Of a DNA stretch of 22,881 bases, positions 6,984 to 22,299 are shown piece after piece. The translations under genes and the position numbers were made by a program. Each line of letters starts with the position of its first letter. The stretch's first letter is position 1. The stretch lies in the IMG/VR virus record IMGVR_UViG_2734482777_000003; one strand, 5' to 3'. The DNA is from a virus. Its lineage: Duplodnaviria > Heunggongvirae > Uroviricota > Caudoviricetes. Below the pieces are notes generated by a model, which searched no databases, had not been told where the DNA came from, and saw nothing but the letters and a program-made list of their open reading frames with translations.

Positions 6984-7672
6984 TCACTGAGACACTATTA
7001 AAAGCGCGTTTTCCAGTCCGGCAAATGGATCTGATACGCCTTCTGTCTGCTCCTTCTCCCACTGAAGAAGCGCATCATTCAGTGGCACTTTGACCCCCTG
7101 CGCACCGTAAACAGCTGAAACAATCTGGGCAGCCCGGATATCAGCCCGTTCGTCCCCCAGCGGGCTGAACCTGTCAAATTCTGCCCACATCATGATTTCT
7201 GATGCGGACATTTCCCGGCGTAACTCTGACAATGTGCGCCCCATCCTGAGCGCCAGCATCATCAGAAAACGCATCCCCGGAAGCTCTACTTTTTTTTAAC
7301 CTCGCCGGCATCACTGATCAGTTCCAGAGACTGCCGAAGAAGCCGCGCATGCACCGGGCCATACACGGCAATCACCTGTTCACGATCATCCTCTGAAAAT
7401 ACAGGTTGCAGTCCGGTATCACACAGAACATCAATGAACAGTTCAACATCTGCCTCCAGATTTCGGCGGGCGCGCTCCGCAACGGATAACGGTGTCTCAT
7501 CATCTTTTGCTTTAACGATCTCCTGCCAGCGCAACCAGGCTTCTGCAGAAGGTTCCCGTAATACAACCGTTGCCCCTTCCCATTCAGGCACATCAACAGT
7601 TTTATGGCGAAACCCCGACATCGTTGCCAGTGCTAGATTGCGGATATTTTTAGTCATCACATCTATCCTCAT
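6984..7672 (-). CDS. GT: Tail assembly chaperone G-T fusion made by -1 programmed frameshift (two-frame product)
   Basis: The G frame ends at the slippery site; the -1 frame continues ...KK|VELPGMRFLMMLALRMG... to the stop at 6984. This is the conserved arrangement in lambda-like siphophage tail chaperones. Confidence 0.7.
7286..7672 (-). CDS. G: Tail assembly chaperone G
   Basis: 128 aa ORF directly downstream of V (ATG overlaps the V stop). It ends ...GEVKKK-stop on an A-rich slippery run, with the T frame open in the -1 frame. Confidence 0.8.
   Translation of the reverse strand: MRIDVMTKNIRNLALATMSGFRHKTVDVPEWEGATVVLREPSAEAWLRWQEIVKAKDDETPLSVAERARRNLEADVELFIDVLCDTGLQPVFSEDDREQVIAVYGPVHARLLRQSLELISDAGEVKKK
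7289..7295 (-). other. -1 programmed ribosomal frameshift slippery heptamer A_AAA_AAG at the end of G
   Basis: Minus strand reads GCC GGC GAG GTT AAA AAA AAG TAG. The heptamer A AAA AAG sits in the last two G codons, and the -1 frame is open from here into the T segment. Confidence 0.7.
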
Positions 7673-17605: not shown

Positions 17606-17821
17606 TTACTCTCCCCGTGCAGCCTTACGCTTGTCTTCTCTGATTTTGAAGTACAGATTTGTCAGATAAGTCAGGAAGCCCAGAACCAGACTCCCCAGTA
17701 CACCAATCGCAGCCCACTGTGAAGGACTGACCTGATCAAGCCACTGTAAAAACCAGTAGCCAGCACTGCCTGCGGAGGTGCCGTAGGCAATGCCCGTTGA
17801 AATTTTGTCCATGGATTTCAT
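17606..17821 (-). CDS. S: Class II pinholin, phage-21 S21-like, with dual-start motif
   Basis: 71 aa [71 protein letters not shown], recognised as S21. Two TM segments; Met1 and Met4 starts; strong GGAGGTGAGG SD. Confidence 0.85.
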
Positions 17822-17880: not shown

Positions 17881-17905
17881 GAAAAGAAAAACCCGCAAAA
17901 GCGGG
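17881..17905 (-). terminator. Intrinsic terminator between the tRNA array and the holin gene
   Basis: Minus strand GCCCGC-UUUU-GCGGG followed by UUUUUCUUUUC. Confidence 0.5.
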
Positions 17906-17981
17906 CGAAACGATATATACAGAAAGGAAAGCACTCTATCCAACAAACCAACCACAGTTAATCGGAATAAAAGCAGAGTGC

Positions 17982-18113: not shown

Positions 18114-18188
<75 letters not shown>

Positions 18189-18191
18189 ATA

Positions 18192-18267
<76 letters not shown>

Positions 18268-18269
18268 AC

Positions 18270-18346
18270 TGGACCGCCACCGGGGACTCGAACCTCGCAC
18301 ACTCAACTTAAAGGGTTGACGCTCTTTCCTGATGAGCTAGTGGCGG
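18270..18346 (-). tRNA. tRNA-like gene with non-canonical features (anticodon loop CCUUUAA, formally UUU/Lys)
   Basis: Reverse complement reads CCGCCACTAGCTCATCAGGAAAGAGCGTCAACCCTTTAAGTTGAGTGTGCGAGGTTCGAGTCCCCGGTGGCGGTCCA. Cloverleaf is foldable but has C at position 33, a C1-G72 pair and an A-C mismatch in the T stem. May be an unusual phage tRNA or a pseudo-tRNA. Confidence 0.4.
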
Positions 18347-18347
18347 T

Positions 18348-18423
18348 TGGTGGCCCTTGCTGGATTTGAACCAGCGACCTGGCGATTATGAGTCGCTCGC
18401 TCTCACCACTGAGCTAAAGGGCC
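18348..18423 (-). tRNA. tRNA with CAU anticodon, most like tRNA-Ile2 (ileX/ileZ-like; Met cannot be excluded)
   Basis: Reverse complement reads GGCCCTTTAGCTCAGTGGTGAGAGCGAGCGACTCATAATCGCCAGGTCGCTGGTTCAAATCCAGCAAGGGCCACCA. Anticodon loop CUCAUAA; strong resemblance to E. coli ileX. Confidence 0.75.
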
Positions 18424-18540
18424 GGGCGCAGGATAATAACGTTACGAAATCAATGTTGCAAGCATTCAAAAATCACCTGGTTAAAAATCACCCTTACCTC
18501 CTCCACCAGCGCATTCACCATGTCTATCCGAGATAAGTGG

Positions 18541-18574
18541 CACAAAAAACCCGCTTGTGGGCGGGTTTTGTTTG
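18541..18574 (-). terminator. Intrinsic terminator, tR'-like (short late transcript)
   Basis: Plus strand AAAAAACCCGCTTGTGGGCGGGTTTTGTTTG: 6 bp GC stem (ACCCGC/GCGGGT), 6 nt loop, flanked by an A-run and a T-run. Sits about 50-70 nt downstream of the candidate promoter. Confidence 0.5.
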
Positions 18575-18599: not shown

Positions 18600-18650
18600 C
18601 AAAATATCAGATTTGCATGAAATATATGCCTTTCAATCTACTTTTGCAAC
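18600..18650 (-). promoter_or_regulatory. Candidate late promoter (pR'-like) with a -10-like element in the initial transcribed region
   Basis: Minus strand has -35 TTGCAA (about 18644-18649), a 17 nt spacer and -10 TATATT (about 18621-18626), overlapping the end of the Q ORF. A GATATT element lies about 10-15 nt further downstream, as expected for a sigma70-dependent pause used by Q. Confidence 0.35.
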
Positions 18651-19328
18651 ACTTTGCTTTGAAAATGCCGCCTTTTGTTTTGAACGTGTTCTCATTACAA
18701 ACAATAAAGCCTCACTATCAAGTCGGTGAAAAATGTGTTTCATTGCAACCCAGTGACGAGTAAATGTTTTGGACCAGTTTTTAGTTGTCACTCCCGCCAG
18801 TAATGCCAGCTCCTGGTATTCATAACCTTCCCCACCAAAAAGTTCTGCTTTTACTGCCTGCGCCGCCAGCCAGATTAATTTTTTCAGGCGTTCCTGCGTT
18901 TTCCCTGCAATTTTTCTGGTACCGGATTGAGTATTAAATTCATTCCACGCCCACTGTGTTATCGCGATCTGATATTCCCAACAAATACTCCCGCTGTAAC
19001 ACCACAACAACCAGGCTTTATGATGTTCTTCAAGAGACAGAACTGCCCGTCGCCATGATGATGTCGAAAACTCAACCTGACTTACCAGAGCAATTGATGA
19101 GCCTTTCGCCAGTGATTGTTTTCCCGGTATCGGTGGACTATCCCGCGTTATCATTCTTCCAGTCACTTCATCGCGGTACCGGATTTTTTTACGCCTGTAA
19201 CGCCCTGTATCAAACATGGCATTCTCCTGCCAGGCTTCAAGCTGACCTTTTGTTGCCCCACTCAAATCAGCGGTAGCGATAATGAGCTGCTCACGCACAA
19301 ACTGTAAATACTGGTTATTCATGCGCAC
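18633..19328 (-). CDS. Putative late-gene antiterminator Q (QuuQ-like)
   Basis: 231 aa ORF directly downstream of rusA and directly upstream of a promoter/short-terminator pair, the tRNA array and the lysis cassette. Assignment is by synteny; I did not recognise a family by sequence. Confidence 0.5.
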   Translation of the reverse strand: MRMNNQYLQFVREQLIIATADLSGATKGQLEAWQENAMFDTGRYRRKKIRYRDEVTGRMITRDSPPIPGKQSLAKGSSIALVSQVEFSTSSWRRAVLSLEEHHKAWLLWCYSGSICWEYQIAITQWAWNEFNTQSGTRKIAGKTQERLKKLIWLAAQAVKAELFGGEGYEYQELALLAGVTTKNWSKTFTRHWVAMKHIFHRLDSEALLFVMRTRSKQKAAFSKQSVAKVD

Positions 19329-21852: not shown

Positions 21853-22008
21853 TTACTCCTCAGGTTCGTAAGCTGTGAAGACAGCGACCTCCGTCTGGCC
21901 GGTTCGGATTCGTACCTCGCAGAGGTCTTTCCTCGTTACCAGTGCCGTCACAATGACGGTAATACAGATGACGATCAGGGCGACTAACATCGCCTTTTGC
22001 TGCTTCAT
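21853..22008 (-). CDS. hok: Hok/Gef-family type I toxin (51 aa membrane peptide)
   Basis: MKQQKAMLVALIVICITVIVTALVTRKDLCEVRIRTGQTEVAVFTAYEPEE is recognised as near-identical to E. coli HokD/RelF. The track ORF 21853..22065 is the same frame extended 19 codons upstream. Confidence 0.85.
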   Translation of the reverse strand: MKQQKAMLVALIVICITVIVTALVTRKDLCEVRIRTGQTEVAVFTAYEPEE

Positions 22009-22299
22009 AGCCTGCTTCTCCTTGCCTTTCGGCACGTAAGAGGCTAACCTAGATTTGCCGTTCATAGATTGAGCCTCAGATTAATGTTAAGCGTCTTGCC
22101 GGACGCGTAATGTTAACTGGGGCTTTTCTCTATCTGCCTTTTGGTGTTCATGCCTGAGACAGATAGCCTCAAGCACCCGCTGCAATTCTACTTAACTCTC
22201 CTTTTCCCGCAAACCGTTTTTATCCCCAGCGGCAAATCGAATACACCACCAGCGCCACCGCCATCGCAATTCCTACCGTTGTGAATGCTTCAGGCCAGG

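Follow-up and report, generated by a model that had tools for sequence, protein, structure and literature searches.

The window analysed here is the whole 22,881-nucleotide (nt) stretch of IMG/VR virus record IMGVR_UViG_2734482777_000003, and it is part of a lambdoid prophage of Escherichia coli. Between the gene for the antiterminator Q and the holin, DUF1327 and lysozyme genes lies a cassette of four tRNA genes, in reading order Ile2-CAU, a tRNA with anticodon UUU, Thr-UGU and Gly-UCC. The second of these, hereafter the candidate, is the subject of this analysis because its anticodon loop has C at position 33 in place of U. We assign it with high confidence to position 2 of the tRNA cassette that sits between Q/pR'-tR' and the lysis genes in lambdoid phages, as a remoulded homologue of argN, a tRNA-Arg with anticodon UCG. 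The features of the candidate are:

18270–18346, minus strand: candidate tRNA with anticodon UUU (ARAGORN call; Rfam tRNA model, 44.4 bits; alignment with argN; covariation within the family).
18313, minus strand: C33, the non-canonical residue, which is G on the plus strand (direct reading; invariant in every sampled copy of the C33 class).
18310–18312, minus strand: anticodon U34-U35-U36 (ARAGORN, Rfam and direct reading).
18303–18319, minus strand: anticodon arm UCAAC-CCUUUAA-GUUGA (alignment with argN and family covariation; nuclease motifs from PMC12409363 and PMC12445682).

ARAGORN called a tRNA-Lys(ttt) at 18270–18346 on the minus strand, and Rfam RF00005 matched positions 18346–18273 at 44.4 bits, compared with a gathering score of 29. 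Read from the minus strand, the candidate is 77 nt long and encodes its CCA end: CCGCCAC UA GCUC AUCAGGAAA GAGC G UCAAC CCUUUAA GUUGA GUGUG CGAGG UUCGAGU CCCCG GUGGCGG U CCA. A preliminary description of the window, made from its letters alone, had reported that the second tRNA of the array is a cloverleaf with the loop CCUUUAA and thus C33, that it starts with C1-G72 and that its T stem contains an A-C mismatch. All of these readings hold; both programs return the cloverleaf, and the mismatch is A51·C63 (positions 18295/18283). The discriminator is U73. The anticodon stem consists of five standard pairs (U27-A43, C28-G42, A29-U41, A30-U40 and C31-G39) and encloses a loop of 7 nt, which together fix the numbering of C32 (18314), C33 (18313), U34-U36 (18312–18310), A37 and A38.

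Standard pairs make up 20 of the 21 cloverleaf pairs, and the near-invariant U8, A14, G18G19, A21, R37, U54-U55-C56, A58 and G53-C61 are all kept, with C33 for U33 as the sole exception. Among the 211 distinct tRNA sequences from all loci retrieved, the only cases without U33 were the candidate family and one unrelated metagenomic tRNA-Pro; U33 was present in 200 of the 201 other distinct tRNAs. The plain minimum free energy (MFE) fold of the candidate is not a cloverleaf (z = −1.46), and the cloverleaf lies 2.7 kcal/mol above it. The corresponding gap is 0.9–4.5 kcal/mol for the bona fide neighbours in the array, and the MFE folds of the Ile2, Thr and Gly tRNAs are likewise not cloverleafs; MFE folding is therefore uninformative about the candidate. 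The copy in the window shows no sub-threshold score, truncation or broken arms, which would be structural marks of a tRNA pseudogene.

U34, U35 and U36 are present as in the substrate of E. coli lysyl-tRNA synthetase (LysRS), but the discriminator is U73, or G73 in one derived haplotype, and not the A73 that LysRS favours. For the arginyl enzyme of E. coli (ArgRS), C35 is the major identity determinant, together with A20; the candidate keeps A20 but has U at both 35 and 36, so that C35 is absent. The determinant 36-UAA-38 for N6-threonylcarbamoyladenosine at position 37 (t6A37) (PMC13276492) is present as U36-A37-A38, but U33 is replaced by C33, an anti-determinant for E. coli TsaBCDE in vitro.

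The Ile2 gene and its position-2 neighbour are together approximately 92% identical to ileZ-argN of Shiga toxin (Stx) phages, and the array occupies the same location that holds ileZ-argN-argO and stx in those phages. Homology, a place directly after an ileZ-like tRNA and a location between Q and the lysis/stx genes all put the candidate in the argN family. The candidate and argN share C1-G72, U73, A20, U15/G48, the T arm and an encoded CCA, and argN of Stx2 phage F349 also has the A51·C63 mismatch. The Rfam scores of argN are similarly low (43.0 bits in F349 and 53.6 bits in phi296; range 43–54) to the 44.4 bits of the candidate. The two differ in the anticodon loop, which is CUUCGAA in argN, with anticodon UCG and U33, as against UUU and C33; at pairs 30-40 (G-C in argN, A-U in the candidate), 27-43 (U·G or C-G, compared with U-A) and 7-66 (U-A, compared with C-G); in the D loop (AUCGGGAUA in argN, AUCAGGAAA in the candidate); and in the downstream partner, which is argO for argN and the Thr and Gly tRNAs for the candidate. 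On this comparison, C1-G72, U73 and A51·C63 are traits of the argN family and no sign of decay, and the lineage-specific part of the candidate is its anticodon arm. The preliminary description had presented C33, C1-G72 and the T-stem mismatch alike as non-canonical; of these, C33 alone is specific to this lineage, whereas the other two are found in a Stx-phage argN with a score of 43.0 bits.

Pair counting over 46 distinct full-length family members showed that 97.1% of 966 pair cells are standard, a level reached by none of 500 shuffles, and slid registers gave 29–54%. Relative to the argN clade, the clade with anticodon UUU has double, pair-preserving changes at 7-66 (U-A to C-G), 27-43 (C-G or U·G to U-A) and 30-40 (G-C to A-U), and a sub-clade that retains U33 adds a further double change at 4-69 (C-G to U-A). 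Standard pairing together with double pair-preserving changes indicates that the anticodon change arose in a tRNA under structural selection. We conclude with high confidence that the switch from UCG to UUU consisted of C35 to U and G36 to U plus the three compensatory stem changes (7-66, 27-43 and 30-40) and, with the same confidence, that U33 to C was fixed afterwards in one sub-lineage, the one seen in the window. Neither the argN homology nor this Arg-to-Lys anticodon switch under intact structural selection had been recognized in the preliminary description. Such a change of amino acid family by point mutations in the anticodon, with the scaffold kept, is tRNA gene remoulding (an alloacceptor anticodon shift). 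Remoulding has been described mostly for organellar and eukaryotic genomes and for a few bacteria; here, unlike the usual cases, it took place in a phage cassette and is coupled to the loss of U33.

To follow the variation of position 2, IMG/VR was scanned with a family pattern and, independently, in a scan anchored at the 3′ terminus of the ileZ-like tRNA ahead of it, which left the second tRNA unconstrained. The C33 form of the 17-nt anticodon arm was found in approximately 110 independent IMG/VR contigs and in 798 of 5,426 (approximately 15%) complete E. coli genomes; here and below, the unit of such numbers is the genome, not the independent event, and clones that have been sequenced heavily inflate them. 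C33 is therefore not a read error of a single record, and the question raised in the preliminary description, whether C33 is conserved in homologous prophage arrays, can be answered in the affirmative for every sampled copy of the class. The exact window sequence is carried by 279 of the 798 genomes (approximately one-third), where PGAP annotates it as tRNA-Lys, and it is also present in isolated phages. The other forms at position 2 in IMG/VR include many argN-type (UCG) variants and one UCU, but the C33/UUU class dominates the sample. Disrupted copies whose anticodon region is replaced or carries an insertion (…GAGCAGACGACACGATAACAGGGTTGTTGG…) were seen at the argN position in approximately 30 IMG/VR loci (for example, L137, L143 and L148), and the C33-type anticodon arm was deleted in three (L144, L191 and L198). 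The ileZ-like tRNA stays intact in arrays where position 2 is often broken. A further class with a 1-nt deletion in the D stem occurs in PPompW prophages of enterohaemorrhagic E. coli and scores less than 29 bits with Rfam.

The canonical relative, locus L138, has the loop CUUUUAU (U33, U38) and a perfect T stem. This U33 sister form (IMGVR_UViG_2861053794_000003, E. coli 95-3322, 2012C-4221 and others) was found in approximately 20–39 complete genomes, with the PGAP label tRNA-Lys, so that the C33 form is approximately 20–40 times commoner. Like the candidate, the sister has C7-G66, A30-U40, U27-A43 and the same D loop, and it follows an ileZ-like tRNA; unlike the candidate, it has U33, U38, an intact G51-C63 and U4-A69, its MFE fold is the cloverleaf, it scores 53.2 bits and it lacks the accompanying Thr and Gly tRNAs. 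Scans of viral and metagenome contigs for U33 on the candidate's own stem (GAGCGTCAACCDNNNAAGTTGAG) returned only unrelated tRNAs; in the targeted scans the L138 type was the only family member to combine that stem with U33, and no argN stem with C33 turned up. Since the argN outgroup has U33 and A38, and one daughter changed position 33 and the other position 38, the loop expected in the ancestor of both UUU sub-clades is CUUUUAA, as in host tRNA-Lys. This ancestral loop was not found on the family stem in the viral and metagenome scans.

One relative in the clade of the U33 sister, in E. coli O2:H6 PG20180057 (NZ_CP043181.1, 4626665–4626742; L241:401-478), has an 8-nt loop, CUUUUUAU. ARAGORN gave it a four-base anticodon (tttt) and Rfam scored it at 45.1 bits; it is possibly a tRNA of the frameshift-suppressor type, or the product of a homopolymer slip.

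A UUU anticodon was also found on another scaffold. In this case a cassette tRNA derived from thrU carries G35U (and A26G), which turns UGU into UUU, with the loop CUUUUAA and A73. It occurs in five IMG/VR contigs (for example, L036, L054 and L070) and six complete genomes (for example, NZ_CP025842.1, 1040162–1040237), where PGAP annotates it as tRNA-Lys, and in the IMG/VR contigs its neighbour is a C33 tRNA that has G73 and in which the T-stem pair is restored (A51-U63). The thrU-scaffold form is a second, independent change to a Lys anticodon in the same cassette and hints that UUU tRNAs on non-host scaffolds have been selected repeatedly.

Within the C33 class, 86 gapless arrays comprising 28 haplotypes were compared. 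Stem substitutions in the candidate were three that keep a pair (C2U, C4U and C11U, each opposite G), one that repairs a pair (C63U, giving A51-U63) and none that breaks a pair, whereas pair-breaking changes in the neighbours of the same arrays numbered four for Thr and three for Gly. In the approximately 110 C33 contigs the anticodon arm does not vary, although they comprise two array architectures and at least four upstream and two downstream types of unrelated flank; the cassette as a whole is likewise conserved between these flanks. With so little overall diversity, a rate test has little power in either direction and would not be decisive.

The remaining features of the cassette and its surroundings, which bear on expression of the candidate, are:

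18348–18423, minus strand: tRNA 1, ileZ-like Met/Ile2(CAU) (ARAGORN; Rfam, 72.5 bits; annotated as tRNA-Ile by PGAP).
18192–18267, minus strand: tRNA 3, Thr(UGU), 100% identical to chromosomal thrU (ARAGORN; Rfam, 73.8 bits).
18114–18188, minus strand: tRNA 4, Gly(UCC), 100% identical to chromosomal glyT (ARAGORN; Rfam, 64.9 bits).
18633–19328, minus strand: antiterminator Q gene, upstream of the array (Pfam Phage_antiter_Q, E = 8e-90).
18546–18569, no strand assigned: GC-rich hairpin with runs of T in the interval from Q to the array, probably the late terminator tR' (from the sequence).
18433–18461, minus strand: putative sigma-70-type promoter, TTGCAA-17 nt-TATTAT with the GC-rich discriminator CCTGCGCCC (consensus scan).
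17606–17821, minus strand: holin gene, the first late gene downstream of the array (Pfam Phage_holin_2_1).

The spacers between the tRNAs of the array are 1–3 nt long, and each tRNA encodes its CCA. One natural mismatch is present in every neighbour of the candidate: A27·C43 in Ile2, A52·C62 in Thr (as in host thrU) and U13·U22 in Gly (as in glyT). The putative promoter ends 9 nt ahead of the first tRNA, and its hexamers, 17-nt spacing and discriminator are retained across divergent upstream flanks (TTGCAx-17 nt-TATTAT; approximately 200 loci). This argues for a dedicated tRNA-type promoter of the cassette in addition to Q-dependent read-through, and its conservation across divergent flanks suggests expression of the cassette from its own promoter as well, perhaps in lysogens. 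Lambdoid gene order makes the hairpin at 18546–18569 the probable tR'. At 17891–17909 on the minus strand, the interval separating the array from the holin gene contains a second hairpin, which resembles an intrinsic terminator (GCCCGCTTTTGCGGGT and then a run of T). E. coli AMSHJX01 and phage vB_EcoM-606R7 carry an array with 100% identity to that of the window, and phages vB_EcoS-689R5 and PhiR47_1 have near-identical ones.

The Thr and Gly genes (18114–18267, minus strand) are joined by a 3-nt spacer and lack the tyrU of the host thrU-tyrU-glyT-thrT operon; the pair appears to have been captured from the host, with tyrU cleanly lost. Chromosomal thrU and glyT genes identical to those of the window are present in essentially all E. 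coli. Host thrU is the preferred target of the nuclease P2 OLD and a prime target of AriB, the nuclease of the PARIS defence system.

The candidate was compared with the published recognition features of tRNA-cutting defence nucleases. AriB recognizes the site U36-AAUC-A41, which it cuts between C and A41; a U39A change abolishes cleavage, and the resistant tRNA-Lys of phage T5 reads UAAACC there (PMC12409363; PMC11464382). In the candidate the same positions are U36-A-A-G-U-U41, compared with UAAUCA in the host. P2 OLD is reported to recognize a paired CNG motif (PMC12445682); the stem strands of the candidate, UCAAC/GUUGA, contain no CNG, whereas argN has CAG/CUG. PrrC cleaves 3′ of U33 (PMC2610378), and in the candidate the residue on the 5′ side of that bond is C instead of U. 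On sequence grounds, then, the candidate lacks every published recognition feature checked for nucleases directed at tRNA-Lys. Phage tRNA-Lys genes rescue phages from PARIS (PMC11464382), and those of several genera also rescue from PrrC170, which extra host tRNA-Lys does poorly (PMC11555353). Like the candidate, the tRNA-Lys(UUU) of T5 and other phages that neutralizes PARIS (AriB) or PrrC has a UUU anticodon and a stem that differs from the host exactly at the AriB site. Unlike the candidate, it has a canonical U33 and belongs to the large clusters of virulent phages, and its cleavage resistance and rescue were shown experimentally; the candidate is from a temperate lambdoid phage, has an Arg-type scaffold and C33, and is known here from its sequence.

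We tentatively favour the explanation that the candidate is a transcribed, foldable, chargeable and weakly decoding spare tRNA-Lys, the value of which would lie in not resembling host tRNA-Lys to defence nucleases. It would be transcribed with its neighbours from the conserved tRNA-type promoter and by Q-dependent read-through, released by RNase P and 3′ trimming, as the 1–3 nt spacers and encoded CCA suggest, and would fold as a cloverleaf. LysRS would probably charge it, since the enzyme reads mainly U34-U35-U36, although its discriminator, U73 in place of A73, probably makes charging inefficient. Decoding of AAA and AAG is expected to be weak because C33 perturbs the U-turn and, in vitro, blocks formation of t6A37 by TsaBCDE. 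The likely benefit would be a spare Lys decoder with a stem-loop that is no longer host-like to tRNA-cutting nucleases, and not codon supply. Codon supply was rejected as a role for the candidate: late genes in the window use AAA at 33.5 and AAG at 16.9 per 1000, which is not unusual, and only ACA, GGA, AGA and AGG are modestly raised, in each case relative to host reference values. As ACA and GGA are raised and the Lys codons are not, supply could explain the Thr and Gly tRNAs but not the candidate.

Several observations weigh against this explanation. U33 is near-universal in tRNAs, and the modifications of its loop matter greatly to tRNA-Lys(UUU). In vitro, U33C tRNA-Met(i) does not receive t6A from E. 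coli TsaBCDE (PMC8887486), and if this anti-determinant transfers from tRNA-Met(i), the candidate is predicted to lack t6A37, which would weaken its decoding of AAA/AAG. The best-known functional class of C33 tRNA, the initiator tRNA-Met of multicellular eukaryotes, has a natural C33 that likewise interacts with t6A37 biogenesis (PMC8887486), but that tRNA binds the P site directly and is modified by KEOPS, which tolerates C33, whereas the candidate is of elongator type and resides in E. coli, where TsaBCDE does not accept a U33C substrate in vitro. The U38 of the sister form breaks the UAA determinant, so that both daughters of the CUUUUAA ancestor are predicted to be without t6A; this could be convergent escape, or both could be impaired. 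U73 and A51·C63 should also weaken the interactions with LysRS and EF-Tu. Among arrays with homologous flanks, nucleotide diversity is 0.012 both for the candidate and for the non-coding spacer downstream, and it is lower in every neighbouring tRNA (Ile2, 0.0006; Gly, 0.0066; Thr, 0.0095). Approximately 222 of the 798 genomes have the D-stem deletion form, which is below the Rfam threshold and left unannotated by PGAP, and approximately 171 have a C4U/U8C/C11U form, also unannotated, so that roughly half of the 798 hold derived forms that PGAP passes over. With the copies that have lost the anticodon arm, these show that the gene has been damaged more than once. Finally, the Thr tRNA of the cassette does not differ from host thrU and still has the motifs of both nucleases, and the cassette as a whole is therefore not built for evasion. 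Lack of a PGAP annotation was considered as a measure of decay and set aside as biased, because the family starts from a low score.

Nearly as likely as the favoured explanation is that the candidate is a relic in slow decay: a once-functional UUU tRNA crippled by U33C (with G51A) that persists because useful tRNAs flank it in a mobile cassette that has been successful. Transcription and processing may continue, but the product would add nothing to translation. A diversity equal to that of the adjacent spacer is what such a relic would show, as are several independent lesions within the clade (D-stem deletion, anticodon-arm deletion, G24A and U8C), the lack of any codon-usage need for an extra tRNA-Lys and an anti-determinant for t6A in E. 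coli; in the argN clade, too, position 2 is often broken (the approximately 30 insertion-disrupted loci). Decay accords less well with the absence of pair-breaking substitutions from gapless C33 variants whose neighbours have several, with the invariant anticodon arm, with a C33 form approximately 20–40 times commoner than its U33 sister and with the fact that neither lineage descended from the inferred CUUUUAA ancestor has kept the loop of the host. The suggestion in the preliminary description that the candidate is a decaying pseudo-tRNA clearly fits some derived copies, namely the PPompW forms at less than 29 bits and those without an anticodon arm, and is a real possibility for the window copy, which passes the threshold at 44.4 bits.

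A stronger form of the favoured explanation holds that the loss of U33 was itself an adaptive counter-defence, by which an Arg tRNA made into a Lys decoder would escape both t6A37 and the nucleases PrrC, RloC, PARIS and OLD and would still translate AAA/AAG, with a possible side effect on the phage's A AAA AAG frameshift site. We consider this unlikely.

Less probable still is a role outside decoding, in which the candidate would serve as a processing spacer for maturation of Ile2 and Thr by RNase P and 3′ exonucleases, or as a decoy for nucleases or modification enzymes directed at tRNA-Lys. The spacers are indeed very tight (1–3 nt), the stems are kept while the functional loop is non-canonical, and competition or non-productive complexes have been raised as a possible mode of action of viral tRNAs (PMC12409363). 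A spacer tRNA is not obligatory, however, as tyrU was lost cleanly from thrU-tyrU-glyT in the same cassette, and a decoy is undercut by the missing AriB recognition motif.

The candidate might also alter reading-frame behaviour at Lys codons, as a C33 tRNA(UUU) without t6A, for example by tuning the −1 frameshift of the tail chaperone G/GT; we regard this as very unlikely. Gene G (7286–7672, minus strand; Pfam Phage_TAC_1) ends in GTT AAA AAA AAG TAG and is followed by the T open reading frame (6984–7274, minus strand). The G/GT frameshift site is most likely of the dnaX type, A AAA AAG, which would be read wholly by tRNA-Lys(UUU), rather than the G GGA AAG of lambda. Shifting at dnaX-type A AAA AAG sites depends on tRNA-Lys(UUU), and the PG20180057 relative, with its 8-nt loop and four-base anticodon call, would suit such a role. 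Slippery sites of Lys codons are, however, common in siphophage G/GT with or without phage tRNAs, the same cassette is found in prophages with different morphogenesis modules, and the candidate has no complementarity to stop codons that would make it a classical suppressor. A lambda-type G GGA AAG site, which the Gly and Lys anticodons of the cassette would read, was searched for and rejected: the GGGAAAG matches (2580 and 8694) lie outside the chaperone gene and are no more than expected by chance. Of the two other roles put forward in the preliminary description, that of a suppressor-like tRNA is not supported, because UUU in a 7-nt loop, which is not expanded, has no stop-codon complementarity, and no evidence was found for a tRNA-like regulatory element.

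Phage-encoded tRNAs and tRNA-based counter-defence are already established, but the evidence for phage tRNAs acting against tRNA-cutting immunity is recent and comes almost entirely from virulent phages with large clusters. In the literature searched, we found no account of a conserved elongator-type tRNA with C33 from phages of E. coli. The favoured explanation, if true, would bring the temperate lambdoid prophages that reside in many E. coli strains, among them relatives of Stx phages, within the scope of counter-defence tRNAs, and it would show, in a rare natural case, how much departure from U33 a working elongator tRNA tolerates. Were the loss of U33 adaptive, a counter-defence trait would be present in approximately 15% of complete E. 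coli genomes. If the candidate is a relic, the message concerns annotation: in hundreds of genomes it bears the plain PGAP label tRNA-Lys, with no flag for its non-canonical nature, and its close variants have no annotation. The locus also shows tRNA remoulding in action, from Arg to Lys on one scaffold and from Thr to Lys on another within the same cassette.

Two further RNA features were noted in this and related prophages. A sok antitoxin RNA (Rfam RF01794, 112.4 bits) lies at 22003–22178 on the minus strand of the window and overlaps a 70-amino-acid open reading frame (21853–22065, minus strand); the two form a hok/sok-type type I toxin-antitoxin module in the early-right region of the prophage, and hokD is annotated at the equivalent place in CP030939. 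In other lambdoid prophages, the small RNA STnc100 (Rfam RF02076, 134–158 bits) is encoded just downstream of the tRNA array (L004:1871-2076 and L239:3202-3413), and in L239 it is followed by a group II intron with domains D1–D4 and ltrA.

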